Shown piece after piece: positions 4,377 through 38,132 of a DNA stretch of 44,108 nucleotides. Where the stretch lies: the UHGV virus genome UHGV-0106768. One strand, 5' to 3'. Below the pieces are notes generated by a model, which did no database searches, was not told the origin of the DNA, and was given only the letters and a program-made list of their open reading frames with translations. This DNA comes from a virus. Within the stretch, counting starts at the first letter, position 1. Every line of letters starts with the position of its first letter. The translations under genes were made by a program, and so were the position numbers.

Positions 4377-4390
4377 TCGGGGGTGGCATC

Positions 4391-18915: not shown

Positions 18916-19397
18916 CGCTGACTGAGAACTTCATTCAGAATGCCATCCATCTCGATGCGGGTGCGGAGGTCATGTACGGCAGCGATCAGATGTACGACAC
19001 CTACCCTTGCCGTTTTCCGGCTGTGGAGTTTCAACTTATGGCAACGGATGCTCTTGTTGAGGTTGCAGACCGCATCCGCATGGAGAAGGGCTACCTTCCG
19101 ATGCATCCGAGAGACGGCAAGACAGACGATGTGGACTGCGATGGTTTCTATGATTTTTATGTCGGGATTTCAAAGCTCCCCGGCGACCATCAGCAGTGCC
19201 AGCTTGACAGCAGCATCAGCTTTATGGTTGTCAATTCGGATTCGGATGACAACGAGGATATGTACAATATCGACTTGACAGAAGCAGAACGGGAATATGT
19301 GTATGAGATACTGAACCGACAGTGCCGGAGGTATCACGGCAAGGACTGCGCCGAACTTCTGGCAGAGTCTGAAAAGGAGCTGATGGATACAGCATGA
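18912..19397 (+). CDS. Hypothetical protein
   Basis: ATGA-type overlaps with both neighbours. 161-aa ORF. Confidence 0.55.
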   Translation: MTLTENFIQNAIHLDAGAEVMYGSDQMYDTYPCRFPAVEFQLMATDALVEVADRIRMEKGYLPMHPRDGKTDDVDCDGFYDFYVGISKLPGDHQQCQLDSSISFMVVNSDSDDNEDMYNIDLTEAEREYVYEILNRQCRRYHGKDCAELLAESEKELMDTA

Positions 19398-21541: not shown

Positions 21542-22005
21542 ATTACTGCGGACTGAATAAAAACGATATCGCCAACGGCGAAGGTGTCCGTGTATCGCTG
21601 TTTGTATCCGGATGCCGGAATCAATGCAAGGGCTGTCACAACCCAGAGGCATGGGATTTCAGCTATGGACAGCCCTTCACAAAAGAAACTGAAGATGAGA
21701 TCATCGAAGCCCTGCGTCCTTCTTGGATACAGGGCATTTCCATACTCGGTGGTGAACCCTGTGAGCCGGAAAATGAAAAAACACTCCTGCCTCTGCTGAA
21801 AAAGATCTGGTGGGAGATGCCAGAAAAAGATATCTGGCTGTACAGCGGATACACTTACGAGCAGTTGCAAGGCAGAGCCATACTTCGGTATGTGGATGTT
21901 CTGGTTGACGGGCCGTTCCTAATCGACCAGAAGGATATCTCCCTTGCATTTCGAGGCAGTCGGAATCAACGGATCCTCCGATTAAGAAATGGGGTGCGGG
22001 TATGA
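21538..22005 (+). CDS. nrdG: Anaerobic RNR activating protein (radical SAM)
   Basis: GEGVRVSLFVSGCRNQCKGCHN cluster. Start overlaps the nrdD stop (GTGA). Confidence 0.88.
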   Translation: MNYCGLNKNDIANGEGVRVSLFVSGCRNQCKGCHNPEAWDFSYGQPFTKETEDEIIEALRPSWIQGISILGGEPCEPENEKTLLPLLKKIWWEMPEKDIWLYSGYTYEQLQGRAILRYVDVLVDGPFLIDQKDISLAFRGSRNQRILRLRNGVRV

Positions 22006-24352: not shown

Positions 24353-24594
24353 CGAAACAGGAATGTGCCATCGTGACAGCGTACACAGGGTTCGCTATGC
24401 TGAAGGGCAGCGACCTGAAATATCTGTACAATTATCTCTCCGGTCTCATCGGCAGGCCGGTGTATTCACACGAGATCCCTGCGGTCGCAGAAGCCTGCAA
24501 GGAACAAATACGAGAAGATTTCCTTGCCCTGTGCAGGAACGCAAAGGAGGCGGATGATGGATCATACAACAATGACGCTCGGCAGTCTGTTTGA
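24349..24594 (+). CDS. Hypothetical protein
   Basis: ATGA overlap with the upstream gene. 81-aa ORF. Confidence 0.5.
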   Translation: MTKQECAIVTAYTGFAMLKGSDLKYLYNYLSGLIGRPVYSHEIPAVAEACKEQIREDFLALCRNAKEADDGSYNNDARQSV

Positions 24595-26848
24595 CGGCTC
24601 CGGGGGCTTTCCGCTTGGTGGCATCCTCGCAGGGATCGAGCCAAGGTGGAGCAGCGAAATTGAACCTTTTCCGGTGCTTGTCACGCACAAGCGGCTGCCG
24701 CAGGTGCAGCACTACGGTGATGTATCTACGCTGAACGGCGCAGAGCTTCCGCCGGTGGATATCATCACCTTAGGCAGTCCTTGTCAGGACCTGTCTATTG
24801 CGGGCAAGCGTGCCGGAATCCATGACGGTGATCGGTCGAACCTGTTCTTTCAGGCGATCCGCATCATCAAAGAAATGAGGGATGCAACAAATGGACGATA
24901 TCCGCGATACTGCGTCTGGGAAAATGTCCCCGGCGCTTTCTCATCCAACGGAGGAAACGACTTCAAGGCTGTCCTCGAAGCAGTTATCGGAGTTAAAGAA
25001 AAAGGGATCGAGGTGCCTGCGCCTGAAAATCACAGATGGGCAAAATCAGACGTATATCTGGGAGACGGATGGAGCGTGGCTTACCGAGTTTTCGATGCTC
25101 AATACTGGGGTGTCCCCCAACGCAGAGCAAGAATCTACCTTGTCGCAGATTTTGCTGGCGAAAGTGCCGGAGAAATACTATTTAAGTCCGAAGGCGTGTC
25201 TTGGTATACTCCGCAGGGCTTCCGTGCGTGGCAAGGAGCTGCCGGAGGTGCTGAAGAAGGCACTGGAGAAACAGGCGGGCGGTCTGACGCTGGAGGTGGA
25301 ACCCTCTGCCTGAATACACAGGGCAACAGCGGCGTCGGCATCACCGAGGACAAGGCTCTCGCACTGGTCGCACAGGATCACGGGAATCATCCTGCCGTTC
25401 TTGCCGCAGGTTTTTCCACAGAGCATAGTGCAAAAGCACGCAGCATCGGATACGAGGAGGAAGTCTCCCCGACACTGAGAGCAGGTGTTGTTCCTGCGGC
25501 ACTCTCGGTCGAAAACCATCCGACAGACGGTCGTGTGAAGATCCGTGAGGACGACACCTGCCAGACACTTTGCAGCAGAGCCGGGACGGGCGGCAACAAT
25601 GTACCGCTTGTCGCTGAACCGATCACGCTGAAAATCAGGTCAGGCTGCGAAGGCGGCGGCAAGGGCGCTCTCTGGCAAACTGATAAATCTGCTACGCTTG
25701 CTACCAACAACAACCAGACACTCTTTCAGCCAGAGATCAAAGCCTTCGGTGTATGTAGCAAGCATTCCAATGCGATGATGTCAGACAATCCGCACAGTGG
25801 CTTTTACGAAGCGACCACGAGCAGAACGCTTGACCAGAGCGGTGGAAACTCCGTAACATCGAATCAGGGCGGCATCTGCGTGGTAGCACCTGCGCCGGAG
25901 ACATTCGATGTGCGTTTCACATCGGACGGCACGAAAAATGCTCGTGGGCATTGTTACCCGACAGACATTTCCCGATGCCTTGATACGAGCGAGGGATCGC
26001 CAGACTCGAATCACGGCGGTGTCGCTGTGGTGGCTCTTGAACCGGGGGCTGCATCACGTGTCGGCGGTCATGTGTACAGTGACGGCAAAAGCGGTACGCT
26101 TCGAGCCAATGCCGGCGATAATCAGCAGGCTGTTGTGGTCGCCGAGCCGGAGACCTATGCTCTGCAAGGCTCGATGATCGGTCGTGCCGACAAGAACGGT
26201 CCGCAGGGTGACGGCATCAATGAGGATGTGTGCTTTACGCTCAATACTTCAGACAGGCACGCTATTGCCGCACCCGATCCGTCTTTCACGATTTCCCGTG
26301 ACAATCACTTCGCCGTTTCGGAAGATATATCTGTTACGGCAGTTGCGAGAGGTCCTGCAACGGTCGCAGCCCCGGCAGATCACTACTGCACAAGCAAGAA
26401 TTCACACCACACGGTCGCTGTGCATGAGCAGGCAAACACGCTGGTCGCATCCGACTGGAAGGATCCGCCGCTTGTGAACGACCTTCCGAATGACGAGCCG
26501 GTATATATCGTAAGAAGGCTGACTCCGGTGGAGTGCGCCAGATTGCAGGGATTCCCGGACTGGTGGTGTGCCGACCTTGCGATTCCTGATCCTTCTGACG
26601 AGGAGATCGCCTTCTGGATGGAAGTATGGGAAACTTGGAGACAGATCACAAATCCCAAGGGCAAACCGAAAACGGAAAAGCAGATCCGCAAATGGCTGGC
26701 TAATCCGTACACGGACAGTGCCGAGTACAAGTTATGGGGCAACGGTGTCTCAGAGCCCGTTGTGTTCTTCGTGCTATCCGGCATTGCCTGGGCGGCACAG
26801 AATTCTGAAACTAATGCAGCAAATTGTGAACATTCTGATACTATGTAA
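24554..26848 (+). CDS. dcm: DNA (cytosine-5) methyltransferase with a variable region of about 450 aa made of tandem TRD-like repeats (probably multispecific)
   Basis: Motif I LFDGSGG, IV GSPCQDLS, VI WENVPG, VIII QRRARIYLVADF, IX RRLTPVECARLQGFP, X GNGVSEPV. AAGGAGG RBS before ATG 24554. Confidence 0.9.
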   Translation: MMDHTTMTLGSLFDGSGGFPLGGILAGIEPRWSSEIEPFPVLVTHKRLPQVQHYGDVSTLNGAELPPVDIITLGSPCQDLSIAGKRAGIHDGDRSNLFFQAIRIIKEMRDATNGRYPRYCVWENVPGAFSSNGGNDFKAVLEAVIGVKEKGIEVPAPENHRWAKSDVYLGDGWSVAYRVFDAQYWGVPQRRARIYLVADFAGESAGEILFKSEGVSWYTPQGFRAWQGAAGGAEEGTGETGGRSDAGGGTLCLNTQGNSGVGITEDKALALVAQDHGNHPAVLAAGFSTEHSAKARSIGYEEEVSPTLRAGVVPAALSVENHPTDGRVKIREDDTCQTLCSRAGTGGNNVPLVAEPITLKIRSGCEGGGKGALWQTDKSATLATNNNQTLFQPEIKAFGVCSKHSNAMMSDNPHSGFYEATTSRTLDQSGGNSVTSNQGGICVVAPAPETFDVRFTSDGTKNARGHCYPTDISRCLDTSEGSPDSNHGGVAVVALEPGAASRVGGHVYSDGKSGTLRANAGDNQQAVVVAEPETYALQGSMIGRADKNGPQGDGINEDVCFTLNTSDRHAIAAPDPSFTISRDNHFAVSEDISVTAVARGPATVAAPADHYCTSKNSHHTVAVHEQANTLVASDWKDPPLVNDLPNDEPVYIVRRLTPVECARLQGFPDWWCADLAIPDPSDEEIAFWMEVWETWRQITNPKGKPKTEKQIRKWLANPYTDSAEYKLWGNGVSEPVVFFVLSGIAWAAQNSETNAANCEHSDTM

Positions 26849-26925
26849 GCTGTTCTGTATGGGCTTTCCGTGATATGCACAATCTCAGGGGCGTAAAAGC
26901 CCCGTACACTCTACGATTTACAGTC

Positions 26926-26954
26926 TTGATATATCCGCCGTAATGGCGTAATAT
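26926..26954 (+). promoter_or_regulatory. Cassette promoter 1: TTGATA-17-TAATAT
   Basis: Exact 17-nt spacer. Conserved leader and GGAGG RBS follow, then ATG 27011. Confidence 0.7.
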
Positions 26955-27010
26955 GTGACTACCGCAAGGGAAAACCGAGCGGAATCAAAAACGAAACGGA
27001 GGATTCACAT

Positions 27011-28132
27011 ATGAAAACTTATGCAATGATCATTGGAAACCGCAAGGAACTCACAAAGAGAATCGAGGCACTCACCGGAGAGCGCAGCGTATACACCTTC
27101 ATGCCGAGATGCGCCTATGAGATCGGGGCATTCGCAGTCGAGAAGGACGGCACACTTACGGCACAGGACGATGCCGACCAGAGCGTGATCGACACCCTGA
27201 GAGCCGAGGGTATGATCGGTGGTGAGATCATCGCAGAGAGCATCAAGGCAGTCGAGCCGGAGCAGACCGATGAGACCGCAGAGCCGGAACAGCCTGCACC
27301 GCCCGTAAGCACCGATGAATGGGACGATGATGAGGATGACGACGATGAGAACAGCGTCGAGGGCGAGAATGCGGAAGCGGAAGAGCCGGAGGAGTCCGAA
27401 GAAAATGCCGATAAGTCGGAGCCTTCCGCAGAGCCAGAAGCCGCACCTCCTGCGACCGAGGATGCCTGGGATGATGAACCGGAGGATGAACCCGGCGACG
27501 AGCCGGAAGAAACCACCGAGCTTCCTGAACCGCTGACCGCAGAGATCAGCTTCCCGCTGAGCCATCACACGGTGCAGAGCCTTACAAACCTCATCTGCAT
27601 GATCCACTCCCGCGGCGCACTTCTCAGCAAGGCAACCGGCGGACAGTTTTACGCTGACAAGAGCCTCGCCGATGCGATCCTCGATGACAAGACCTTCCGC
27701 AGCATTCACGAGCTGATCGCCTACATCAGAGAATGGGAGGAGACGAATCCTGAACTGAAGGGCATCCGCTTCGCCGATGACAAGCTAATCTTTGACGGCT
27801 TCGGTGCAGCGCAGGATGCCGAAACGGTGCAGACCTTCACCAAGCTCGCCACAGCCATGAACAGGATGGCGATCACGCAGAAACGTGTGCAGGCAAAGGA
27901 TGTCGATGACAGCAACGAAAAGTACGCACTCCGCATCTGGCTGATCCGCCTTGGGCTGAACGGCGCAGACTGCAAGGTTGACCGCAAGCGCCTCATGGCT
28001 CCGCTTTCCGGACACACCGCATTCCGCAACGATGCGGAGCGTGTGCGCTGGGAGGCAAAGCAAAAGGCAAAGCGTGATGCTGCCAGAACCGAACTGACCG
28101 AGGAGGATGAAAACGATGCAGTTTCCGAATGA
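27011..28132 (+). CDS. Hypothetical protein with an acidic low-complexity region of about 90 aa and an amidoligase-like C-terminal tail
   Basis: 373-aa ORF. Acidic tract EPEQTDETAEPEQ...DDDEDDDDENSVEGENAEAEEPEESEE. The C-terminus EKYALRIWLIRLGLNG...LSGHTAFR parallels KKFAMRTWLMRMGFIG...LTGDNSFR of the neighbouring amidoligase. Confidence 0.6.
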   Translation: MKTYAMIIGNRKELTKRIEALTGERSVYTFMPRCAYEIGAFAVEKDGTLTAQDDADQSVIDTLRAEGMIGGEIIAESIKAVEPEQTDETAEPEQPAPPVSTDEWDDDEDDDDENSVEGENAEAEEPEESEENADKSEPSAEPEAAPPATEDAWDDEPEDEPGDEPEETTELPEPLTAEISFPLSHHTVQSLTNLICMIHSRGALLSKATGGQFYADKSLADAILDDKTFRSIHELIAYIREWEETNPELKGIRFADDKLIFDGFGAAQDAETVQTFTKLATAMNRMAITQKRVQAKDVDDSNEKYALRIWLIRLGLNGADCKVDRKRLMAPLSGHTAFRNDAERVRWEAKQKAKRDAARTELTEEDENDAVSE

Positions 28133-28364
28133 AAGACAGCTCAGAGCCTTGCGGGAGCGTTATCCCGCAGGAACCCGCATCCGACTGAAGCATATGGATG
28201 ACCCTTATGCACCCGTACCGCCCGGCACGGTCGGAGAGGTTCAGATGGTCGATGACGGCGGCAACATACACATGGTCTGGGAGAATGGCAGAACGCTCTC
28301 CCTTATAGACGGTGTCGATGATTTCCAAGTCATTTCTGACCGCAATGGGGGCTCCGGAAAATAA
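28116..28364 (+). CDS. DUF4314 domain protein
   Basis: GAGGAGGA RBS. RYPAGTRIRLKHMDDPYAPVPPGTVGEVQMVDDGGNIHMVWENGRTLSL is the DUF4314 pattern. Confidence 0.7.
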   Translation: MQFPNERQLRALRERYPAGTRIRLKHMDDPYAPVPPGTVGEVQMVDDGGNIHMVWENGRTLSLIDGVDDFQVISDRNGGSGK

Positions 28365-28477
28365 GAGATCCTATTCCATTGTATCCGAGTATACCATAGA
28401 ATTTCAAGTATATCAAGTGTACACATACACCAGATATGAGCAATGTATTTTCCTCGATATTCTGTGGTTTTAGCGGC

Positions 28478-28506
28478 TTGCTATATCCTCCGAAAGACGG
28501 TAACAT
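28478..28506 (+). promoter_or_regulatory. Cassette promoter 2: TTGCTA-17-TAACAT
   Basis: Exact 17-nt spacer. Leader hairpin GGGC-AAAC-GCCC at 28521-28532. GGAGG RBS. Confidence 0.7.
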
Positions 28507-28561
28507 GTGACACAACGGAAGGGCAAACGCCCACCGAAAAACCGAATCGGAGGATACCAAA

Positions 28562-29506
28562 ATGACTGAGAAAACCGCACAGCAGATCAACAGAATGAAG
28601 GAGCAGACCATCGGGGTTGAGATCGAGATGAACAACATCACCCGCAAGGCTGCCGCAAAGCTCGCCGCCAACTTCTTCGGCACCAGCCGCACCGAGTACA
28701 CCGCACACCGCAACGGCTACGAAACCTACAGCGCATGGGATGCACAGGGCAGAGAGTGGAAATTCCAGAAGGACGTCAGCATCGCAGGCCCCGACAGCGA
28801 AAAGTGCGAACTGGTCACACCGATCCTGCACTACGCAGACATCGAAACCCTGCAGGAGCTTGTGAGAAGGCTCAGAAAGGCAGGAGCGCGCAGTGATTAC
28901 ACGCGGGGATGTGGAGTCCACTGCCACATTGGAGCCCAGGGACACACACCGCAGACCTTGAGAAACCTCGCAAACCTGATGGCAAGCCACGAAACCCTGA
29001 TCGCCGAGGCAATCAGAGTAGACCAGAGCAGAATGCGCCGCTACTGCAGAACAGTTGACCCGAGATTCCTTGAACAGCTCAACCGCAAAAAGCCCACCAC
29101 GATGGCACAGCTTGCGGACATCTGGTACGGCGCACAGGGCTGCGAATACGGCAGAACCCACCACTACAACGACAGCCGCTATCACATGCTCAACCTCCAC
29201 GCTACCTTCACCAAAGGCACGGTCGAGTTCAGACTTTTCCAGTTCGCACCGCCTTCCAACGGCAAGCAGAACGGGCTCCACGCAGGCAAGCTCAAGAGCT
29301 ACATTCAGCTCTGCCTCGCAATGAGCCAGATGGCAAAGGACCTGCGGAGCGCCAGCCCCAAGGAACAGCAGAAGGAAAACAAAAAGTTCGCCATGCGGAC
29401 TTGGCTGATGAGAATGGGATTCATCGGGGACGAATTCGCAACCGCAAGGGAAACCCTCACCGAGAACCTTACAGGCGACAACAGCTTCCGCTTCGGCAGA
29501 CCTTAA
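28562..29506 (+). CDS. Amidoligase (glutamine-synthetase-like COOH-NH2 ligase family of phages and ICEs)
   Basis: N-terminus TIGVEIEMNNITRKAAAKLAANFFG and the core CGVHCHIG...GTVEFRLFQ match my recollection of the 'putative amidoligase enzyme' family. Confidence 0.7.
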   Translation: MTEKTAQQINRMKEQTIGVEIEMNNITRKAAAKLAANFFGTSRTEYTAHRNGYETYSAWDAQGREWKFQKDVSIAGPDSEKCELVTPILHYADIETLQELVRRLRKAGARSDYTRGCGVHCHIGAQGHTPQTLRNLANLMASHETLIAEAIRVDQSRMRRYCRTVDPRFLEQLNRKKPTTMAQLADIWYGAQGCEYGRTHHYNDSRYHMLNLHATFTKGTVEFRLFQFAPPSNGKQNGLHAGKLKSYIQLCLAMSQMAKDLRSASPKEQQKENKKFAMRTWLMRMGFIGDEFATARETLTENLTGDNSFRFGRP

Positions 29507-29542
29507 AGCCTGCCCTGCGGGGCGGAAGAACAAGCGGAACGT

Positions 29543-29670
29543 CACGGCGGCGCACACAGCACCCTCATCGCCACGTGTGGGGCGGAAGGGTATCCTCCGA
29601 ACACATACCCAACTCAGTCAACCGAGCCACACAGCGCAAATGTAGGCAAGGCATAAAATGCACAACATAC
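29543..29670. repeat. GC-rich intergenic S-module, copy 1 (divergent, hairpin arms apparently in inverted order)
   Basis: CACGGCGGCGCACAC...CCACGTGTGGGGCGG...GGCAAGGCATAAAATGCACAACA shares blocks with the copies at 32.2, 33.1 and 34.4 kb. Confidence 0.5.
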
Positions 29671-29709
29671 GGCACAGAATCGCCCTCGATGATCTGTTCA
29701 TTTACTCGC

Positions 29710-29738
29710 TTGATAATGCCGCCGAAAAGAGTTAACAT
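29710..29738 (+). promoter_or_regulatory. Cassette promoter 3: TTGATA-17-TAACAT
   Basis: Exact 17-nt spacer. Leader variant CTACCGCAAGG. AGGAG RBS. Confidence 0.65.
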
Positions 29739-29777
29739 GGCACTACCGCAAGGAAAAAACGCAAAGGAGAACATAGC

Positions 29778-30239
29778 ATGAACAAGAAAAAATACTACAT
29801 AGCCTACGGCAGCAACCTCAACATCCGCCAGATGCGGTTCCGCTGCCCAGGCGCAAAGCCCATCGGCATTTCCGCGATTCCTGACTACGAACTGCTCTTC
29901 AAGAGCAGCAAGACGGGAGCGTACCTCACCATCGAGCCGAAGGACGGCGGGCTTGTTCCGGTCGCCGTGTGGGAAGTGACAGCCGACGATGAGAAGCACC
30001 TCGACATCTACGAGGGCTACCCGAACTTCTACTACAAAAAAGAAGTACGCCTGCCGATCAAGCTGGCAAACGGCAAGACCAAAAAGGTCACGGCATTTGT
30101 CTACATCATGCACGAGGAGCGTGAGATTGCGATCCCGTCAATGACCTACATCCGCACCTGCGAGGAAGGCTACCGCAACTTCGGATTTGATGTGAAGTAC
30201 CTTGACAGGGCATACATGAGAAGCACAAAGGAGGACTGA
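29778..30239 (+). CDS. Gamma-glutamyl cyclotransferase / AIG2-like protein
   Basis: YYIAYGSNLNIRQMRFRCPGA N-terminus, and ...YEGYPNFY, typical of the GGCT/AIG2 fold. Confidence 0.7.
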   Translation: MNKKKYYIAYGSNLNIRQMRFRCPGAKPIGISAIPDYELLFKSSKTGAYLTIEPKDGGLVPVAVWEVTADDEKHLDIYEGYPNFYYKKEVRLPIKLANGKTKKVTAFVYIMHEEREIAIPSMTYIRTCEEGYRNFGFDVKYLDRAYMRSTKED

Positions 30240-30241
30240 AA

Positions 30242-30445
30242 ATGAAAGAACAGGTTTTTGAGAAGCGTACATGTCCGCAATGCGGACGCACCTACACCGA
30301 GCGTCCTGCCCTATCCCGCTACGACAACGACACGATCATCTGCCCGGACTGCGGCACGAGGGAGGCACTCGAAAGCATGGGCATCAGCATCGAGGAACAG
30401 GACAAGATCCTCGGCATCATCCACGAGAAGTACAACGGCGAATAA
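30242..30445 (+). CDS. Small zinc-ribbon protein
   Basis: CPQCG...CPDCG pairs. Starts 2 nt after the upstream stop. Confidence 0.55.
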   Translation: MKEQVFEKRTCPQCGRTYTERPALSRYDNDTIICPDCGTREALESMGISIEEQDKILGIIHEKYNGE

Positions 30446-30516
30446 GGCGACATAAAGGGGCGTTACAGCCCCTTTCCGCATTCTCAGGGATAACTTTATC
30501 CCCCACTTTCCGGGCG

Positions 30517-30565
30517 TGACACGGCGCGTTCTGGCGCAAACTGTGGGCTTGTGTATATGTACCTG
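30517..30565. repeat. S-module, partial copy
   Basis: TGACACGGCGCGTTCTGGCGCAAACTGTGGGCTTGTGTATATGTACC matches the 3' half of the other copies. Confidence 0.5.
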
Positions 30566-30617
30566 TTCAGCTTGCTGAAAACGGCGATTCTTCTACGATT
30601 TATTTTGCATATAGGCG

Positions 30618-30646
30618 TGGACATATCGCCGGGATCATGGTAATAT
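30618..30646 (+). promoter_or_regulatory. Cassette promoter 4: TGGACA-17-TAATAT
   Basis: Exact 17-nt spacer. AT-rich upstream block TTTATTTTGCA. Leader hairpin GGGC-AGACA-GCCC. Confidence 0.65.
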
Positions 30647-30704
30647 GCTACACAACGGCAGGGGCAGACAGCCCACCGGAATTCATAACATGGAGGATAC
30701 GAAC

Positions 30705-31175
30705 ATGAACGAAAGCTACTTTGAGGAGATGACCTTCCAGTGCGCCGCCTATGAACGCGCCAAAAAGGAGCGCGCCGAGCGCAAGGCTCAGATTGCCGAA
30801 GCCCACGGCTACGACAGCCCGGAGATGGACGCTTGGTACGCTGAGGAGAAGGCGGCGGGTCCTTACCCCTACAGCGGCGGTGAGATGAAAGCCTACTGGG
30901 TGTACAAGATGCGCCGCGAGAACGACGGTGACGAGTTCGAGATGAGCGATTACTGCTGGGACAAGGAATTCCACGATTTCATCGAAACGCTCCGCAAGCT
31001 AGGCATCACCGAGTTCACGATCACCAATCAGAGCACGGCGCTGATGGAGAACATCTACGGATTTATTGCAGAAGGCTGCACGATGGTCGGAACGCACACC
31101 ATCACCAAGAAGAGCCTGCGCTGGAGCGAGGAAGAATACGAAACGGCACAGGGCATCCTTTTCAAGGTGAACTGA
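30705..31175 (+). CDS. Hypothetical protein
   Basis: GGAGGATACGAAC-ATG. 156-aa ORF. Confidence 0.6.
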   Translation: MNESYFEEMTFQCAAYERAKKERAERKAQIAEAHGYDSPEMDAWYAEEKAAGPYPYSGGEMKAYWVYKMRRENDGDEFEMSDYCWDKEFHDFIETLRKLGITEFTITNQSTALMENIYGFIAEGCTMVGTHTITKKSLRWSEEEYETAQGILFKVN

Positions 31176-31183
31176 TATCGACA

Positions 31184-31207
31184 GGAGCAGGGCTTCGGCT
31201 CTGCTCC
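31184..31207 (+). terminator. GC-rich TTCG-loop hairpin after a cassette gene
   Basis: GGAGCAGGGC-TTCG-GCTCTGCTCC. Near-identical copy at 33632-33655. A C/T-rich tail follows, but no clean U-tract. Confidence 0.5.
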
Positions 31208-31293
31208 CCCTCCCCCTTTTCCTCATGTGTAACTCCTACAATACGAAAGGCTGAGATCGGCGATTCTTCTACGTTTTATTTTGCACATAGGCG

Positions 31294-31322
31294 TGGACTT
31301 ATCAGCAGGATCATGGTAATAT
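31294..31322 (+). promoter_or_regulatory. Cassette promoter 5: TGGACT-17-TAATAT
   Basis: Exact 17-nt spacer. Upstream block shared with promoter 4. Leader hairpin GGGC-AGAAC-GCCT. Confidence 0.65.
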
Positions 31323-31377
31323 GTGACACAACGGAAGGGCAGAACGCCTACCGAAAAACGAAACGGAGGATAACACC

Positions 31378-31698
31378 ATGAACCCCTACACACTGAGAAA
31401 GAGCCTGAACCTGATTGATGCCAACACGGCGATCACCCGCGAGGACTTCGAGAGCCTCTTCTGCAAGACTGCAGAGCGTGTCACCTTTACCTTCAACGGT
31501 TGGGACGGCAAGAGCTATGATGGCGAGAGCCGCAGCGGTTACGTTTACCGCACCATCATCGAGGGCTACGAGAATGTGAGATTCGTTAAGGTCGGCAAGG
31601 GACTGCATTACATCGATGAGGACAGCAGCATTACCGAGAAGGCTACGGGCATCGCCCACAAGGAAGCAGAGTGGCTGGTCGATGTGAAGAGAGCATAA
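31378..31698 (+). CDS. Hypothetical protein
   Basis: GGAGGATAACACC-ATG. 106-aa ORF. Confidence 0.6.
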   Translation: MNPYTLRKSLNLIDANTAITREDFESLFCKTAERVTFTFNGWDGKSYDGESRSGYVYRTIIEGYENVRFVKVGKGLHYIDEDSSITEKATGIAHKEAEWLVDVKRA

Positions 31699-31763
31699 GC
31701 AAAACAGCGGAGCCCTTCCTGCGGGGAGGGCTTACCGCAGAAAAAACATGGAGGTTTACGAAC

Positions 31764-32147
31764 ATGAGTACGAATTCAAGAGTCGGAATCCTGCATCAGG
31801 ACGGCGCCACGGAGACAATCTACTGCCATTGGGACGGCTACCCCGAACACCAGATGCCCATCCTCACCGAGCATTATAACACCGCCGAGAAGGTCAAGGC
31901 ACTGCTTGCCCTTGGAGACATCAGCATCCTCGGCGAGCGCCTTGCTCCCGATGCGGATGAGCCGCACAGCTTTGAAAAGCCTGCCGATGGTGTGACGGTT
32001 GCTTACCACCGCGACCGCAAAGAGCCGATGCAGCCTGCGGTCACCCACAAGAGCGTTGTTTCCCTGATGAGCGATGACTGGGGCATTCCGTATTACTACC
32101 TTTTCGATGAGGAAAAAGGAGCATGGCTTCCGCCGACCGAGGACTGA
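31764..32147 (+). CDS. Hypothetical protein
   Basis: GGAGG RBS before ATG 31764. 127-aa ORF. Confidence 0.6.
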   Translation: MSTNSRVGILHQDGATETIYCHWDGYPEHQMPILTEHYNTAEKVKALLALGDISILGERLAPDADEPHSFEKPADGVTVAYHRDRKEPMQPAVTHKSVVSLMSDDWGIPYYYLFDEEKGAWLPPTED

Positions 32148-32170
32148 TAGGTTCAGCCCTGCGGTGCTGA

Positions 32171-32290
32171 CTTGCCCCACGTTGTCCTTTGTGCGGTTTT
32201 CCTGCGATAAGCTTGCCCCTGCGGAAAGCCGCCTCACACGGCGCGTTTGTGTGCCTCCTGTGGGCTTGGTGCTATGTATACAACAAATGG
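32171..32290. repeat. S-module, copy 3
   Basis: CTTGCCCCACGTTG...GCTTGCCCCTGCGGAAAGCCGCCTCACACGGCGCGTTTGTGTGCCTCCTGTGGGCTTGG...TATACAACAA. Confidence 0.6.
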
Positions 32291-32327
32291 CGCAGATACG
32301 CCGATTTTGTTCTGAACATTTAGCCGC

Positions 32328-32356
32328 TTGCTATTCCGGAAAGATCATGGTAATAT
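32328..32356 (+). promoter_or_regulatory. Cassette promoter 6: TTGCTA-17-TAATAT
   Basis: Exact 17-nt spacer. Leader identical in its core to that of promoter 2 (ACACAACGGAAGGGCAAACGCCCACCGAA). Confidence 0.7.
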
Positions 32357-32412
32357 GCTACACAACGGAAGGGCAAACGCCCACCGAATACAAAACACGG
32401 AGGTAAACCACC

Positions 32413-32778
32413 ATGACAAAGAAGGAAATGAAAGCCGCAGTTGACAAGCTGAAGATGCTGCAGAACGGCAAAGCCGCCCTTGAGGGAATGACCGAAGCGG
32501 ACTGCCTTGAGCTTTTCGGGATCAGCAGAGCGCAGGCACTTGCAAACACAAACGCCGCCCTTGCCAAAACCGAGCAGGAGATTTTCAGAGCCGAGCATCC
32601 GCTGACAGGCATCGACAAACAGCTCTTCGAGATCGCAGCAAAGCACCTGATCACGGTGCAGGAGCGCGGAGACCTTGAAGCCCGCCACTGCGACAGCGAG
32701 GACTTCATCGAGGTTTCGGTCTGGGGGCTGGAAGCCGCCCTCAAGGATGCCTACGAGGCAGGACGCAAGAGCAAGTAA
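32413..32778 (+). CDS. Hypothetical protein
   Basis: GGAGGTAAACCACC-ATG. 121-aa ORF. Confidence 0.6.
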   Translation: MTKKEMKAAVDKLKMLQNGKAALEGMTEADCLELFGISRAQALANTNAALAKTEQEIFRAEHPLTGIDKQLFEIAAKHLITVQERGDLEARHCDSEDFIEVSVWGLEAALKDAYEAGRKSK

Positions 32779-32843
32779 CCAAACGGAACAGCGCAGCCCT
32801 TCCGCAGGGAGGAGGGGCTGCCAATCCCGAAGGAGGAAAGAAC

Positions 32844-33023
32844 ATGGATACATACGCACAGCTTGAAATGCTGACCGCAGTCATCGCAAACCTGTCGGCC
32901 ACGGGAACATGGACGGAGCGAGAAGTGATGGAAACGCTGCTGGATGTCTTTGAACCGAAGGAGCTTGAACAGCTCGGCTACGGCGACTGCGTGAACGCAT
33001 ACTTGGAAGAGTACGGCGGATAG
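32844..33023 (+). CDS. 59-aa hypothetical protein (below the ORF-track cut-off)
   Basis: GAAGGAGGA RBS. My own translation is MDTYAQLEMLTAVIANLSATGTWTEREVMETLLDVFEPKELEQLGYGDCVNAYLEEYGG. Confidence 0.5.
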   Translation: MDTYAQLEMLTAVIANLSATGTWTEREVMETLLDVFEPKELEQLGYGDCVNAYLEEYGG

Positions 33024-33034
33024 CGACGACACAC

Positions 33035-33145
33035 GCACCACGTTGCCTCGTGTGGGGCGGTGCCGGGGAGATGCGTACAGCTTGCCCCTGCGAAAAGCCG
33101 CCTTACACGGCGCGTTCTGGCGCGTCCTATACGATGTACAATTCC
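33035..33145. repeat. S-module, copy 4
   Basis: CACCACGTTGCCTCGTGTGGGGCGG...GCTTGCCCCTGCGAAAAGCCGCCTTACACGGCGCGTTCTGGCGCG. An 11-bp stem joins 33050-60 and 33098-108. Confidence 0.6.
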
Positions 33146-33193
33146 GCCCGACTTCCCGCCTCATGTTTGTCACATTTATTTTGCAGACAGACG

Positions 33194-33222
33194 TGGACTT
33201 TTCTGCGAAAAGACGGTAATAT
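33194..33222 (+). promoter_or_regulatory. Cassette promoter 7: TGGACT-17-TAATAT
   Basis: Exact 17-nt spacer. Leader variant GTGACTACCGCAAGAGAAGCGG, as for promoter 1. Confidence 0.65.
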
Positions 33223-33269
33223 GTGACTACCGCAAGAGAAGCGGAATCAATCAAAAGGAGCGAATCTAC

Positions 33270-33623
33270 ATGAAAATTCTGGTATGCGAACCCGGCAAGC
33301 ACCCCTACGTCAAGGACATCGAGTCGGGGCTGGAGAACCTTCAGCACGAGGTGGACGGACTGATTCAGGCCCTCTACCCATTTTCCGAAGAGGCGGCTGT
33401 TGTGTGCAACGAAGAAGGGCTGTTCCGCGATGACCTCGAATGGAACAGAACGGTCGATCCCTATGGTCCGATCAAGGGAACATTCTTCATTTGTGGGCTC
33501 GGCTTTGAAGATTTTACAGGACTGACCGATGAACAGATCGAAAAGTACACTAAGCTCTTCTGGCCTCCTGAGCTTTTCATCCCGACACCGAACGGCATGG
33601 TGGTGCTTCACATTGTGGAATGA
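33270..33623 (+). CDS. DUF3846 domain protein
   Basis: MKILVCEPGKHPYVKDIESGLENLQHEVDGLIQALYPF...VVCNEEG...GTFFICG pattern. Confidence 0.7.
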   Translation: MKILVCEPGKHPYVKDIESGLENLQHEVDGLIQALYPFSEEAAVVCNEEGLFRDDLEWNRTVDPYGPIKGTFFICGLGFEDFTGLTDEQIEKYTKLFWPPELFIPTPNGMVVLHIVE

Positions 33624-33631
33624 CCGCAACA

Positions 33632-33655
33632 GGGGCAGGGCTTCGGCTCTGCTCC
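33632..33655 (+). terminator. GC-rich TTCG-loop hairpin after a cassette gene (copy of 31184-31207)
   Basis: GGGGCAGGGC-TTCG-GCTCTGCTCC, with two G-U pairs. Confidence 0.5.
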
Positions 33656-33726
33656 GCACCATTCCCCGGTCATAATGTACACAACTGAACGCCGAAAAAT
33701 GCAGAAATGATCGTGATTACTCACGC

Positions 33727-33755
33727 TTGATAATGTAGGCAAGAAGAGTTATACT
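33727..33755 (+). promoter_or_regulatory. Cassette promoter 8: TTGATA-17-TATACT
   Basis: Exact 17-nt spacer. Leader hairpin GGGC-GGAAA-GCCC. Confidence 0.7.
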
Positions 33756-33812
33756 GTGTACAACGGAAGGGCGGAAAGCCCAGCCGAAAACGAAAATGCG
33801 GAGGTACACACC

Positions 33813-33992
33813 ATGAAAACGAAGCAGGAACTGATCGAGAAGGCAAAGAAAGAGTGGGGCGAGACTTGGAACGAGGGCATGATCGAGTACGATGCCGAGT
33901 ACAACGAGTACATCGTCTGGGTAGGCAAGCCGGACATCTACAAAGCCTTCTTCGATGCCGACACCCTCAGATGCATTGGCACGAAGTGCTGA
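33813..33992 (+). CDS. 59-aa hypothetical protein
   Basis: GGAGGTACACACC-ATG. The track ORF 33756..33992 contains it. Confidence 0.55.
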   Translation: MKTKQELIEKAKKEWGETWNEGMIEYDAEYNEYIVWVGKPDIYKAFFDADTLRCIGTKC

Positions 33993-34000
33993 GAACAACC

Positions 34001-34018
34001 GCCGCCCTTCGGGGCGGC
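34001..34018 (+). terminator. GC-rich TTCG-loop hairpin
   Basis: GCCGCCC-TTCG-GGGCGGC. No U-tract. Confidence 0.4.
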
Positions 34019-34047
34019 ACAACACCAATACTAAGGAGGACATTTAC

Positions 34048-34321
34048 ATGAGCGAGAACACAGAAAAGCGCGATGCAGCCGAAGAACTAAGAACTTACCG
34101 ATGCACAGGCAGACCGCAACGATGACATCTACGAGGCAGCTTTTGAATTCTGCAAGGTGCTGACCGAGAACCCCGACCTCGAATGGGACATGGCGTTCCT
34201 CGGTGAGATCGCCGACCTTGCCGCTGGCATCATGACCGAGCAGGGACACAAGGTGCGGTTCCCCAGTGTGGTCACCGAGCAGGACGGCACGCAGTACATT
34301 GAAGAATACTACGGCGGCTGA
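34048..34321 (+). pseudogene. Small cassette gene disrupted by a frameshift near codon 14
   Basis: A strong AAGGAGGA RBS precedes ATG 34048. Frame 1 (MSENTEKRDAAEELRTYR...) stops at 34123-25. The +1 frame is open from 34091 to TGA 34319-21 and reads LTDAQADRNDDIYEAAFEFCKVLTENPDLEWDMAFLGEIADLAAGIMTEQGHKVRFP... Confidence 0.55.
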
Positions 34322-34361
34322 TCGGCAAAACGGAGCAGTCCTTCTGCGGAGGGGCTGTTCC

Positions 34362-34485
34362 ACGCCACGTTCGCTTGTGTGGGGGGCTTACGGCTTTCTG
34401 CGGATATCTTGCCCCGCGATAAAAGCCGCCCACACGGCGCATTTGTGTGCCTCCTGCGGCAAGGCATAATATGTACAACAACCGA
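34362..34485. repeat. S-module, copy 5
   Basis: ACGCCACGTTCGCTTGTGTGGGGGGC...CTTGCCCCGCGATAAAAGCCGCCCACACGGCGCATTTGTGTGCCTCCTGCGGCAAGGCATAATATGTACAACAA. Confidence 0.6.
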
Positions 34486-34522
34486 CAAAAAATCACCTTG
34501 CACATTCTGGTAGTTTAGCCGC

Positions 34523-34551
34523 TTGATATATCTGCCGAAAAGAGTTATAGT
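34523..34551 (+). promoter_or_regulatory. Cassette promoter 9: TTGATA-17-TATAGT
   Basis: Exact 17-nt spacer. Leader GTGTACAACGGAACGGGAAACCGAG. Confidence 0.7.
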
Positions 34552-34607
34552 GTGTACAACGGAACGGGAAACCGAGCCGAAAACTACGAAAGAACGAGGT
34601 AAACACT

Positions 34608-34844
34608 ATGTGGCACGAAGGCACGATTCTGGCACCGACCAAGGAAGGCAAGACGGTGGTTCACTACTGGGCAAAGGTCTACGACGAGGGCAGCCAGTAC
34701 GGCATCAACGAGGGCAGAATCAGTAAACTGACACTCAAGGAGAATGGCAAGGTCATCTACAACTACGACAGAGGCGAGGATGTACCCGAGCAGAACGAGG
34801 CTGCGGAGATTGCCCTTGCGATCCTGATGTACGAGTACAAGTAA
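34608..34844 (+). CDS. Hypothetical protein
   Basis: 78-aa ORF after cassette promoter 9. GAGGT RBS. Confidence 0.6.
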   Translation: MWHEGTILAPTKEGKTVVHYWAKVYDEGSQYGINEGRISKLTLKENGKVIYNYDRGEDVPEQNEAAEIALAILMYEYK

Positions 34845-34992: not shown

Positions 34993-35466
34993 ATGGCTCA
35001 GAGAGGCAGAAAACCAACGCCTACGGCGATCAAAGAGCTGGAAGGCAATCCGGGCAAGCGTCCGCTGAATGATGCAGAGCCGAAGCCGGAACGCAAGGCA
35101 CCGCCCTGTCCGAAGTGGCTGGAGCCCGAAGCAAAAAAGGAATGGCGCAGGCTGTCAAAGCAACTGGAGCAGATTGGTGTGCTGACCGAGGTCGATCAGG
35201 CGGCATTCGCATCCTACTGTCAGGCATACGCACGATGGAAAGAAGCCGAGGAATTCATGACCCAGCACGGCACGATCGTAAAAACAAAATCAGGTTACTG
35301 GCAGCAGGTTCCGCAGGTATCCATTGCGCAAACTTATCTGAAGATCATGAACAAGATCGCAGAGCAGTTTGGCCTGACCCCGGCGGCAAGAAGCCGTATC
35401 ACTGCCGGCGCAGATATGAAAAACGCTGCCGTTGACGATATGGATGAACTTCTCGGAGGTGGCTGA
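34993..35466 (+). CDS. terS: Terminase small subunit, P27 family
   Basis: MAQRGRKPTPTAIKELEGNPGKRPLN N-terminus typical of the P27 family. GGAAGGAG RBS. Confidence 0.85.
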   Translation: MAQRGRKPTPTAIKELEGNPGKRPLNDAEPKPERKAPPCPKWLEPEAKKEWRRLSKQLEQIGVLTEVDQAAFASYCQAYARWKEAEEFMTQHGTIVKTKSGYWQQVPQVSIAQTYLKIMNKIAEQFGLTPAARSRITAGADMKNAAVDDMDELLGGG

Positions 35467-38132
35467 TGGCGAGAACGGCAAAGGCAAGAGAAAGACCTGC
35501 CAACTATCCGAAACTGAAGGATTATAAACCGACACGCTTTATGCTGCCGGAATCGCACTACGATGCGGCAAAGGCTGACCGAGCTGTGCGGTTCATCGAG
35601 AATCTCTGCCATACCAAAGGACGCTGGGCAGGCAAACCGTTCTGGCTGCTTCCGTGGCAGGAACAGATCATCCGGGATATTTTCGGCATCGTCAAAGAGG
35701 ACGATATGCGGCAATTTCGTACCGCCTATGTCGAAATTCCAAAGAAAAATGGGAAGCAGCTTGCACTGGATACACCGATCCCGACTCCGCAGGGATTCAC
35801 CAATATGGGAGATCTGAAGGTCGGAGATACAGTATTCGATGAAAACGGCATTCCGTGCCATGTGGTTGCGAAAAGTCCTGTGGATGATACAGAGCAAGCC
35901 TACAAGCTGACCTTCAAGGACGGCACCTCGATCATTGCCGGGGAAAGGCATCTGTGGAACTGTCAGTATATTTACGGCAAACGCAAGGATGTTCTCTGGA
36001 CGACCGGCGAGATCTATCGCAGGACAACGGAATACAGACAGCGTTTTTCCGACAGACCACAGACAAAGCGGGATTCCCTTATCCGAATTCCGGTGTGCGG
36101 TGTCCTTCAGACAGAAGCGGCAGTTTTACCGATTGATCCGTATCTGTACGGCTACTGGCTCGGAAACGGTAATGTGACCATGCCGGAGATCACTGTTCGG
36201 ACGGAGGATGTCGAGGATATCATCTCGAATATTCCGTATAAGGTACACAACCGTTATCCGCAGAAATGCGGCGGCAGTGAGATCATAAAGTACAATGAAC
36301 TGAAAGCAGTACTACTTGACAGCTTCCGTGAAAAGAAGATCCGACCAGAATATCTGAGGGCATCCGCAGAGCAGAGATGGGCATTACTGCAAGGGCTTAT
36401 GGATTCGGACGGCTGTATCGGTGAACGCAAAGGGCAAAGTGTGTATGTCACAACGCTGCGAGAGCTGGCGCTTTCCGTCAGAGAACTGCTGTGGTCACTC
36501 GGCATCAAAAATGCAGTGAAATGTGAGCCTTCTACACGGCATGGGTGGCCGACCGGCGAGATTTTGTATATCGTCCGTTTTACAACCTTTGATGACCAAC
36601 CGACATCAAGGCTTAAACGCAAAAATACACGCACACAGGCGCGGTTAAAGGAAACTCGCTCCTGTTTTCATTATCTGCTGGATATTCAACCTGTAAATCA
36701 TCCTGTAAAAATGCAGTGCATTCAGGTGGACAGTCCGAGTCACCAATATCTCGCAGGACCGTCATTTGTGCCTACGCACAACAGTGAGCTTGCAGCGGCA
36801 ATTGCACTGTATCTGCTCTACGCCGACAACGAGCCGTCTGCTGAGGTCTACGGCGCTGCTGCTGATCGTGGGCAGGCATCCATTGTATTCGATGTCGCCA
36901 AAAGAATGGTTGAGATGACACCGGCACTTCTGAAACGCTCAAAAATCATGGCGGCGACAAAGCGTCTGGTGAATTACAGTAATGTTGGCTTTTATCAGGT
37001 GCTTTCAGCGGAAGTCGGTACAAAGCACGGATTGAATGTATCCGGTCTGGTTTTGGATGAACTTCATGCCCAACCGAACCGCAGCCTTGTGGATGTTCTC
37101 ACAAAGGGTTCCGGTGATGCCCGTACTCAGCCGCTGTACTTCCTGATCACAACCGCCGGAACGGATCGCAACAGCATCTGCTACGAGTATCACACGAAAG
37201 CAAAAGATATTCTGGACGGCAGGCGCATTGATCCGTCCTTCTATCCTGTGATCTACGGCTTGAACGATGATGACGACTGGAACGCAGAGGAGTCATGGTA
37301 TAAGGCAAATCCCTCGCTCGGATACACTATCGCCATCGACCGAGTCCGCGATGCTCACCGGGAAGCCCTTACAAATCCCGCTGAAGAAAATGTATTCCGT
37401 CAGCTGAGGCTTGACCAGTGGGTAGGCAGTGCGGTGGCATGGATTCCGGAGCATATCTACGACAGGGGCAATCTTCCGATCGACCTCGAAAAGCTCCGGG
37501 GACGGGAGTGCTACGCAGGTCTTGACCTATCCAGCACATCGGATATCACGGCATTTGTGCTGGTGTTCCCTCCGCTGCATGACGGCGAGAAATACATCGT
37601 TGTCCCGCACTTCTGGCTGCCGAGAGAAACGCTCGATTTACGAGTACGGCGAGACCATGTTCCCTACGATGTATGGGAGCGCATGGGATTATTTCATATC
37701 ACCGAGGGCAATGTGGTCGATTACAATTTCGTGCGGAAAACGATCAACGAGCTGCACACGATGTACAACATCAAGGAAATTGCTGCCGACCGCTGGAATG
37801 CCACACAGCTTATCACAGACCTTGAGGGAGACGGATTTACCGTTGTTCCGATGGGCATGGGCTTCAAGGATATGTCCCCGCCGATGAAGGAACTGTACAA
37901 GCTCATACTCGAAGGGCAGTTTATCCACGGCGGCAACCCTGTACTCCGCTGGATGGCAGGAAATGTGGTCGCTGAAATTGATGCAGCGGAGAACATCAAA
38001 CCAAGTAAAAAGAAAAGTACAGAAAAGATTGACGGTATCGTGGCATGGATCATGGCACTTGACCGCTGCATCCGCCACGAAATGCAGGGCAGTGTCTATG
38101 ACGAACCCGGCCACGATCTTGTGGTCATCTGA
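35466..38132 (+). CDS. terL: Terminase large subunit interrupted by an intein in the Walker A motif
   Basis: PKKNGK / SELAAAIALYLL flank the insert. Walker B LVLDELH. C-terminal nuclease region. ATGA overlap with terS. Confidence 0.9.
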   Translation: MARTAKARERPANYPKLKDYKPTRFMLPESHYDAAKADRAVRFIENLCHTKGRWAGKPFWLLPWQEQIIRDIFGIVKEDDMRQFRTAYVEIPKKNGKQLALDTPIPTPQGFTNMGDLKVGDTVFDENGIPCHVVAKSPVDDTEQAYKLTFKDGTSIIAGERHLWNCQYIYGKRKDVLWTTGEIYRRTTEYRQRFSDRPQTKRDSLIRIPVCGVLQTEAAVLPIDPYLYGYWLGNGNVTMPEITVRTEDVEDIISNIPYKVHNRYPQKCGGSEIIKYNELKAVLLDSFREKKIRPEYLRASAEQRWALLQGLMDSDGCIGERKGQSVYVTTLRELALSVRELLWSLGIKNAVKCEPSTRHGWPTGEILYIVRFTTFDDQPTSRLKRKNTRTQARLKETRSCFHYLLDIQPVNHPVKMQCIQVDSPSHQYLAGPSFVPTHNSELAAAIALYLLYADNEPSAEVYGAAADRGQASIVFDVAKRMVEMTPALLKRSKIMAATKRLVNYSNVGFYQVLSAEVGTKHGLNVSGLVLDELHAQPNRSLVDVLTKGSGDARTQPLYFLITTAGTDRNSICYEYHTKAKDILDGRRIDPSFYPVIYGLNDDDDWNAEESWYKANPSLGYTIAIDRVRDAHREALTNPAEENVFRQLRLDQWVGSAVAWIPEHIYDRGNLPIDLEKLRGRECYAGLDLSSTSDITAFVLVFPPLHDGEKYIVVPHFWLPRETLDLRVRRDHVPYDVWERMGLFHITEGNVVDYNFVRKTINELHTMYNIKEIAADRWNATQLITDLEGDGFTVVPMGMGFKDMSPPMKELYKLILEGQFIHGGNPVLRWMAGNVVAEIDAAENIKPSKKKSTEKIDGIVAWIMALDRCIRHEMQGSVYDEPGHDLVVI
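35757..36782 (+). mobile_element. Class-3-like intein (Gln1, Trp-Cys-Thr triad) with LAGLIDADG homing endonuclease in terL
   Basis: Starts QLALDTPIPTPQGF and ends FVPTHN followed by Ser. Block B is GERHLW (W codon 35955-57). Block F is MQCIQVD (C codon 36717-19). Block G is PTHN. LAGLIDADG-like YGYWLGNGN and LLQGLMDSDG. Confidence 0.8.

Follow-up and report, generated by a model that had tools for sequence, protein, structure and literature searches.

A conserved amidoligase and gamma-glutamyl cyclotransferase gene pair in a Candidatus Heliusvirales-type phage, and its predicted gamma-glutamyl chemistry

The two enzymes and their linkage

UHGV virus genome UHGV-0106768, a stretch of 44,108 nucleotides (nt) analysed as a whole and hereafter called the window, derives from a tailed phage of the Candidatus (Ca.) Heliusvirales type with hosts among rumen and gut Firmicutes. 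Within an 8-kb accessory array of small genes, bounded by DNA methylase genes on one side and terminase genes on the other, it carries two genes predicted to encode an amidoligase and a gamma-glutamyl cyclotransferase (GGCT), which lie on the same strand and are separated by 272 nt (Table 1). An earlier note, made from the sequence alone, had proposed both enzymes and suggested hidden Markov model searches and an analysis of gene-neighbourhood conservation. Both open reading frames (ORFs) were recovered on the + strand at exactly the coordinates proposed, both family assignments were supported by profile searches, and the pair was found together in essentially every related element examined. 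Homologues are abundant in public data, with >8000 for the amidoligase and ~4900 for the GGCT.

The amidoligase matched PF12224 (Amidoligase_2) over the full length of the profile (positions 1-244 of 245; E 8.7e-56; 190 bits, the cut-off being 22), and phrog_2443, "amidoligase enzyme", with E 1e-112. In an alignment of 40 diverse representatives (37-65% identity), positions conserved in at least 90% of sequences comprised G18, E20, E22, W66, D71, S73, E83, P87 and D93 in the N-terminal part, G108, G118, H120, H122, L136, R157, W188 and Y189 in the middle, Y202, R206, Y207, N211, L212, H213, E222, R224 and F226 further on, and G286, G289, E291 and R296 in a helical C-terminal tail (~amino acids (aa) 255-314) that is common to an acidic paralogue encoded nearby. 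Conserved family-wide are E20, E22, E83, H120, H122, R157, R206, H213, E222 and R224. Ligases of the glutamine synthetase (GS) type bind metals and ATP via a series of residues of the form E-x-E ... E ... H-x-H ... R ... E-x-R. By analogy, E20, E22, E83, H120, H122, R206, E222 and R224, all at least 90% conserved, would be the equivalent residues, as placed by the alignment of family members. The fold of the catalytic domain is that of a carboxylate-amine ligase related to GS and glutamate-cysteine ligase (GCL). Two candidate structural relatives were discarded: AcrIF9, a sequence-level match whose E-value of 0.37 corresponds to chance, and Med20, the top-ranked match, which covered 100 residues of beta-sheet only and was treated as noise.

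For the GGCT, scores exceeded the cut-offs of both PF06094 (GGACT/AIG2-like; 49.1 bits against 22.8, E 1e-12) and PF13772 (AIG2_2; 30.8 bits against 27, E 4e-7), and phrog_2520, "gamma-glutamyl cyclotransferase", was matched with E 5e-53. A sequence search aligned the protein to human GGCT (2pn7, E 1e-6), with the substrate-binding loop Y10-G11-S12-N13-L14 present and Glu79 paired with human Glu98, the catalytic position altered in PDB entry 3cry. At least 183 of 186 different orthologues, drawn from every clade sampled, retain both the YGSNL loop and this Glu. The AlphaFold2 model (pLDDT 75) gave human GGCT as its best Foldseek match (2i5t/2rbh, E 9e-8, TM 0.73, 27% identity), followed by Bacillus subtilis YkqA, ChaC2 and AIG2-like proteins, with GGACT more distant.

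Linkage between the two genes was evaluated through a census of 160 loci with an amidoligase identity to the query of 74% or more (80 each from IMG/VR and GTDB genomes; hereafter close loci). A GGCT gene adjoined the amidoligase gene in all 149 assessable close loci. In 135 of them it came after the amidoligase on the same strand, at a distance of 79-610 nt, while the other 14 displayed two GGCT paralogues directly 5' of the amidoligase. The same held for two further clades with amidoligases ~40-45% identical to the query, where GGCT followed the amidoligase in 46/46 assessable loci, which brings the total to 195/195 in clades down to ~40% identity. Among GenBank phages the pair is kept down to ~36% amidoligase identity, and Arthrobacter phage Salgado encodes a GGCT beside an amidoligase only ~26% identical to the query. 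In LUZ24-like Pseudomonas phages, both families are found within a five-enzyme early cluster (PMC3890496). The pair thus recurs in phages of Actinobacteria and Proteobacteria although the surrounding genes turn over completely, and no further enzyme is conserved beside it in any clade examined.

This census bears directly on the simplest alternative, namely that two unrelated accessory "morons" with no common pathway happen to be neighbours. Each gene in the window does have its own predicted promoter cassette (see below), as do seven other, unrelated genes of the array. The unbroken adjacency and its recurrence in Actinobacteria and Proteobacteria phages nonetheless make a chance juxtaposition extremely improbable, and on this genomic evidence we consider it effectively excluded.

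Several variations on the arrangement were observed. The twin GGCT paralogues of the 14 close relatives (loci L008-L012, L014, L017, L019, L020, L045, L048 and L082-L084 of our census, at ~3400-4720 in each) are 57-61% and 40-43% identical to the window GGCT, with none downstream of the amidoligase, and the YGSNL loop and catalytic Glu were present in both copies at the two loci inspected. Some distant clades carry an extra gene of ~120 aa between amidoligase and GGCT (L163, 4777-6424; L172, 4938-5288), with the shared motif DY.KE..H..W.F.G...Q.TGDT, and in L163 the GGCT is followed by genes which, judged by eye from their translations, are AbrB-like and Macro-domain-like. Fusion of the two domains was looked for and rejected: 10 long members of the amidoligase family (398-956 aa) contained PF12224 alone, and the best 120 GGCT homologues were all single-domain proteins, none joined to an amidoligase. 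We also rejected an amidoligase "split" by an intron or intein, which had been considered because of two-piece BLAST matches in PP197246, PV036458 and other records. In PP197246 the pieces correspond to the tail of the paralogue and the true amidoligase, and the other two-piece matches likely have the same origin.

The earlier note had placed such pairs in phages and conjugative elements. Carriage by phages and prophages was borne out, whereas carriage by conjugative elements was not confirmed: in PLSDB, both genes occurred on one unannotated 8-kb Subdoligranulum record (OY725859.1), and no other PLSDB record contained a full-length amidoligase match or both genes. Plasmid or conjugative-element carriage was therefore set aside.

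Table 1 Features of the amidoligase-GGCT locus in the window (SD, Shine-Dalgarno sequence).
Feature	Position	Strand	Description
Cassette of acidic paralogue	26926..27010	+	TTGATA-17-TAATAT, conserved leader, SD
Acidic protein, predicted pseudo-amidoligase, 373 aa	27011..28132	+	phrog_2443, E 2e-34
DUF4314 protein, 85 aa	28107..28364	+	PF14192, E 7e-29
Cassette of amidoligase	28478..28561	+	-35 TTGCTA 28478-28483, -10 TAACAT 28501-28506, GGGCAAACGCCC hairpin, SD GGAGGA 28549-28554
Amidoligase, 314 aa, GS/GCL-like carboxylate-amine ligase	28562..29506	+	PF12224, phrog_2443; ATG 28562
Cassette of GGCT	29710..29777	+	TTGATA-17-TAACAT 29710-29738, SD AAGGAG 29764-29769
Gamma-glutamyl cyclotransferase-fold enzyme, 153 aa	29778..30239	+	YGSNL 10-14, catalytic Glu79; PF06094, PF13772; ATG 29778
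Zn-ribbon protein, 67 aa	30242..30445	+	CPxCG...CPDCG; phrog_2945, E 2e-22

Predicted promoter cassettes, accessory genes and genomic setting

Nine near-identical copies of one predicted promoter/leader cassette lie between 26.9 and 34.6 kb of the window (26900-34650), ahead of otherwise unrelated small genes. The cassette combines a -35 element (TTGATA or TGGACA), a 17-nt spacer, a -10 element (TAATAT, TAACAT or TATACT), a conserved leader, an SD and an ATG, with a short GGGC...GCCC hairpin in the leader of about half of the copies. A scan with the promoter consensus returned 10 predicted sites versus 4.5 +/- 2.3 expected by chance, and an Rfam scan of the window, conserved leaders included, matched no family. 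Further shared blocks (repeat families D3, D8, D9, D12 and D15) occur upstream of cassettes. Overall, the cassettes look like a recombination-prone regulatory set that could shuffle accessory genes. The earlier suggestion that each gene of the pair has its own cassette promoter therefore stands as a sequence pattern of the window, but does not extend to the module at large. Within the close clade, the leader motif was found 5' of the amidoligase in 79/159 loci and 5' of the GGCT in 32/156, and the intergenic gap had a median of 134 nt; in the distant clades the gap was at most 40 nt in 34/46 loci, a spacing indicative of an operon. Because both genes usually appear to form one operon outside this lineage, a separate predicted promoter for each is a local feature, peculiar to the lineage of the window.

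The other neighbours named in the earlier note, i.e., a DUF4314 protein, a zinc-ribbon protein and an acidic amidoligase-related protein, are all present as it described them. In family alignments, the acidic protein consists of a conserved N-terminal domain, an acidic linker of variable length (~20-110 aa) and an amidoligase-homologous C-terminal half. An hhalign comparison pairs residues 177-340 of the protein with amidoligase residues 119-311 at 97.9% probability, and BLASTP detects the common tail with E 3e-10. The H-x-H motif is lost ("VHCHIG" in the amidoligase, "AEISFP" in the paralogue), and on these grounds the protein is a degenerate paralogue and predicted pseudoenzyme. Since the DUF4314 gene overlaps the 3' end of the paralogue gene by 26 nt, the two are probably translationally coupled. 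Among close loci, the paralogue was detected 5' of the amidoligase in 135/141 and DUF4314 in 127/141. The Zn-ribbon gene begins 2 nt past the GGCT stop codon and follows GGCT in 133/135 close loci. Its product has a strongly conserved core (CPxCG..Y...PALSR.DN.T.ICPDCGTREAL.S.G). However frequent, these partners can be dispensed with: a clade of 33 loci (P0283) keeps both enzymes without paralogue, DUF4314 or Zn-ribbon, and conversely Streptococcus phage Javan191 and Erysipelothrix phage phi1605 carry a unit of paralogue plus DUF4314-like small ORF with neither enzyme. In these two phages (L211, 2051-2734; L212, 2060-2975) the unit lies directly 3' of DNA methylases, and its larger gene is annotated as "virulence-related protein". 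From the enzyme-free units together with the 33-locus clade, we therefore take amidoligase plus GGCT as the conserved core, with the paralogue and DUF4314 as a separable accessory unit outside it and the Zn-ribbon as a frequent yet dispensable partner.

These distributions also inform a tagging scenario, in which the ligase would gamma-glutamylate host or phage proteins at lysines or at their N-termini, or ligate a small protein tag as PafA does with Pup, and the GGCT would erase the free marks. The Zn-ribbon protein of the window ends in ...NGE, and a terminal Glu is enriched among its orthologues, yet it occurs in only 89/151 of them, with a variable penultimate residue. With no conserved C-terminus of the GG[EQ] type, a Pup-like role for the Zn-ribbon was rejected. 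The retention of both enzymes without small partners throughout a whole clade, the occurrence of the paralogue-DUF4314 unit on its own elsewhere and the closer relationship of the GGCT to the dipeptide enzyme GGCT than to GGACT all argue in the same direction, and we consider reversible protein tagging decidedly unlikely. The earlier note had set the pair in a putative early or anti-defence array. Membership of a known defence system was likewise discarded, as PADLOC v2 models returned no defence-system match among the array proteins, with only noise for the Zn-ribbon (E ~1e-3).

Beyond the array, the window encodes, 5' of the pair, a DUF2800 nuclease, PolA, an SNF2 helicase, a D5-type primase-helicase, MetK, NrdD/NrdG, a ParB-N6 methylase and a 774-aa C5 methylase, and 3' of it TerS, TerL, portal, a ClpP-like protease and an HK97-type capsid protein. 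The closest annotated genomes are "NatCom" phages, with Ca. Heliusvirales in their GenBank taxonomy line, and the closest genomic copies are prophages in rumen Ruminococcus flavefaciens and other Clostridia. Several other features of the window were noted. The phage-borne S-adenosylmethionine synthetase (MetK), anaerobic ribonucleotide reductase NrdD and activase NrdG (16049-17209 and 19394-22005) are adjoined by the two DNA methylases. In the C5 cytosine methylase (24524-26848), the Pfam domain was matched as three separate stretches, which suggests large insertions. The large terminase (35466-38132) has 888 aa, compared to 528-537 aa in related phages, and includes a LAGLIDADG_3 match at aa 303-370, N-terminal to the ATPase and nuclease domains; this insert is probably an intein, and the TerL of Erysipelothrix phi1605 is annotated as intein-containing. 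Finally, two small putative genes of the array (32844-33023, 59 aa, and 34157-34321, 54 aa) have C-termini ending in ...YGG.

This setting is relevant to two further explanations. In the first, the ligase would attach an unusual peptide linkage to peptidoglycan precursors or stem peptides, to be trimmed by the GGCT, in order to block superinfection by other phages or prepare the wall for lysis; envelope modification of this kind is a proposal attributed to Iyer et al. 2009 for larger phage modules. The related elements are prophages in many isolate genomes and, along with the predicted host-type promoters, this would fit a lysogenic-conversion gene. The Firmicute module, however, is without the other two ligases and the amidotransferase, and the pair has no linked gene for an envelope-related, signal-peptide-bearing or membrane protein. 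In addition, the alpha-amine of D-Glu in the peptidoglycan stem is acylated by L-Ala, whereas, from the enzymology of the family, GGCT chemistry requires it to be free. We thus regard an envelope role as unlikely. In the second, the pair would provide protecting-group or carrier chemistry for a specialised product such as a modified DNA base or another metabolite, similar to BtrJ/BtrG in butirosin biosynthesis: the gamma-glutamyl group would be put on, a host or unlinked phage enzyme would act, and the GGCT would remove the group. The position of the pair directly 3' of two DNA methylases and near MetK is consistent with this possibility, as is the pairing of amidoligase/amidotransferase genes with thymidine hypermodification genes in other phages (PMC8989533). 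Against it, the scanned ORFs of the window yielded no synthase for 5-hydroxymethyldeoxyuridine or 5-hydroxymethylcytosine, no kinase, no aGPT-Pplase and no other enzyme of hypermodification, and no enzyme that could act on the intermediate is conserved beside the pair in any clade. Such a role appears quite improbable.

A putative gamma-glutamyl amide module

The reading we tentatively favour, and to which we would give slightly less than an even chance, is that the two enzymes work as a module complete in itself, the first forming a gamma-glutamyl amide and the second resolving it, as suggested by the folds, the conserved residues and the linkage of its members. In a first step, the amidoligase would activate a carboxylate with ATP, most likely the gamma-carboxyl of free glutamate, and ligate it to an amine X (an amino acid or other small host amine) to yield gamma-Glu-X. 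In a second step catalysed by the GGCT, the free alpha-amine of the glutamyl moiety would attack the gamma-amide, releasing 5-oxoproline and X. The simplest net reaction would be glutamate + ATP -> 5-oxoproline + ADP + Pi with X recycled, i.e., a truncated gamma-glutamyl cycle, while an alternative outcome would be the transient masking of X. Either way, the phage would remodel the host metabolite pool during infection or lysogeny. What the analysis itself documents is the presence of both genes, their family membership, their conserved motifs and a near-obligate linkage across phage lineages. We infer the ligase step from fold and conserved residues and the cyclotransferase step from the conserved GGCT active site, and it is likewise by inference that the ligase product would be a gamma-glutamyl compound, that X would be a small amine, and that the pair would serve a purpose such as takeover, exclusion or anti-defence.

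Three considerations shape this scheme. For GGCT chemistry, the alpha-amine of the gamma-glutamyl group must be free, which argues for free glutamate as the carboxylate donor of the ligase. Since the GGCT is nearer to the dipeptide-specific human enzyme than to GGACT, an amino-acid acceptor is mildly favoured. And because the genes are normally co-transcribed, as their spacing suggests, and no linked enzyme would act between the two steps, the conversion of glutamate to 5-oxoproline is taken as the default net reaction.

A number of observations weigh against this scheme. PDB searches with the single amidoligase sequence and with the 40-sequence profile returned nothing significant, and literature searches on phage amidoligase/GGCT gave annotation-level mentions only, with no biochemistry found for any member. 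Separate predicted promoters in the lineage of the window would permit uncoupled expression of the two enzymes. A pure futile cycle, moreover, brings no obvious benefit to a phage. Finally, Faecalibacterium phages Taranis and Pioen carry an amidoligase and no recognisable GGCT, so that the ligase product need not always be resolved by a GGCT. A divergent GGCT beside the Taranis amidoligase was considered and rejected, the adjacent proteins of 131 and 133 aa having neither a Pfam match nor a YGSN motif.

In a bolder version of the two-enzyme scheme, the pair would be a complete device that burns ATP to turn the large glutamate pool of the host into 5-oxoproline with a recycled amine. It could serve lytic takeover or, expressed from the prophage's own predicted host-type promoters, poise the lysogen for abortive infection or the exclusion of competitors. 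To our knowledge, no phage or defence system acts by draining glutamate into 5-oxoproline, and we hold this version to be improbable.

The statement in the earlier note that comparative genomics had already described ligase-GGCT modules in phages, with substrates left untested, agrees with the passages in which several papers cite Iyer et al. 2009 (PMC11253131, PMC11318856, PMC11945000, PMC10580990). The pair is also labelled in GenBank Heliusvirales records and in PHROGs, and it is remarked upon in papers on prophages of Clostridium clostridioforme (PMC11318856) and Terrisporobacter (PMC11253131), both of which cite Iyer et al. 2009. The "two amidoligases" of these two papers correspond, in the Terrisporobacter phage record inspected, to the paralogue and the enzyme. 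Given these earlier labels in PHROGs, in GenBank and in two prophage papers, the module is known yet uncharacterised and does not represent a new kind of system. The present analysis contributes linkage counts from the census, narrows the module to a minimal core of two enzymes, identifies the acidic protein as a predicted pseudoenzyme within a separable unit, and finds the separate predicted promoters to be lineage-specific.

Nothing in the window would surprise a specialist, but the module represents a long-standing unknown of a prevalent gut phage lineage. Ca. Heliusvirales-type phages have been described as widespread in the human gut (PMC11283538), and the module is abundant in these phages and in prophages of rumen and gut Clostridia, with related versions in Actinobacteria and Pseudomonas phages. 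The prediction on the module dates from 2009, and the two-gene core offers a cleaner biochemical target than the five-enzyme modules. Should a central metabolite or an immune signal prove to be the substrate, the pair would provide a new phage route to the manipulation of host physiology; if it were a routine auxiliary metabolic gene pair, little would change.

Comparison with known systems

Among cellular systems, eukaryotic GCL and GGCT would have the predicted chemistry in common with the window pair, namely ligation to gamma-Glu-X and subsequent cyclotransfer to 5-oxoproline, and both window enzymes match their folds at the structural level. Together, GCL and GGCT run an ATP-consuming, 5-oxoproline-producing loop. 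Sequence identity is low, at 12-17% for the ligase and 27% for the GGCT, and the window lacks the glutathione synthetase, GGT and 5-oxoprolinase of the gamma-glutamyl cycle. The PuuA/PuuD (putrescine) and BtrJ/BtrG (butirosin) pairs share the logic of adding a gamma-glutamyl group to an amine and later taking it off. PuuA is a GS-fold enzyme and BtrG a GGCT-fold enzyme, whereas PuuD is a GATase-type hydrolase and BtrJ an ATP-grasp enzyme. Both of these systems employ further enzymes between addition and removal, for which the window pair has no linked counterpart. As for pupylation (PafA/Dop with Pup), a small partner whose C-terminal GG[EQ] is kept among orthologues was looked for beside the pair, and none emerged.

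Among phages, the modules of the LUZ24/phiEco32 type resemble the window in combining an Amidoligase_2 enzyme and a GGCT-fold protein in one early-gene cluster (PMC3890496, PMC11945000). They differ in comprising five enzymes rather than two and in belonging to lytic phages with Proteobacteria hosts. No class-II amidotransferase, ATP-grasp ligase or COOH-NH2_lig (PF14395) was found among the ten neighbours and larger ORFs of the window, and these families were likewise absent from related loci. Arthrobacter phage Salgado encodes a trio of GGCT, amidoligase and GATase_6 (gp97-99; L214, 2072-4648), with matches to PF06094 (2e-18) and Amidoligase_2 (2.7e-35). Compared to the window pair, a class-II amidotransferase is added and the gene order is reversed, with the amidoligase as divergent as noted above; with its three enzymes, the trio is intermediate between the pair of Firmicute phages and the LUZ24-type module of five.

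The closest counterparts are the annotated pairs (phrog_2443 and phrog_2520) of Heliusvirales and Clostridia prophages, for instance in NatCom_991 (PV036413), Terrisporobacter phage TPDSL_ph1 and C. clostridioforme LM41 phi13. These share with the window the two families, the gene order, the paralogue, DUF4314, the Zn-ribbon and the position between methylase and terminase, at 75% identity for the amidoligase and 67% for the GGCT, while IMG/VR contains copies with 99% identity. Taken together, there is no essential difference between the window and the annotated pair: the window represents a rumen Ruminococcus-type sublineage of this module, in which each gene has acquired a predicted cassette of its own.

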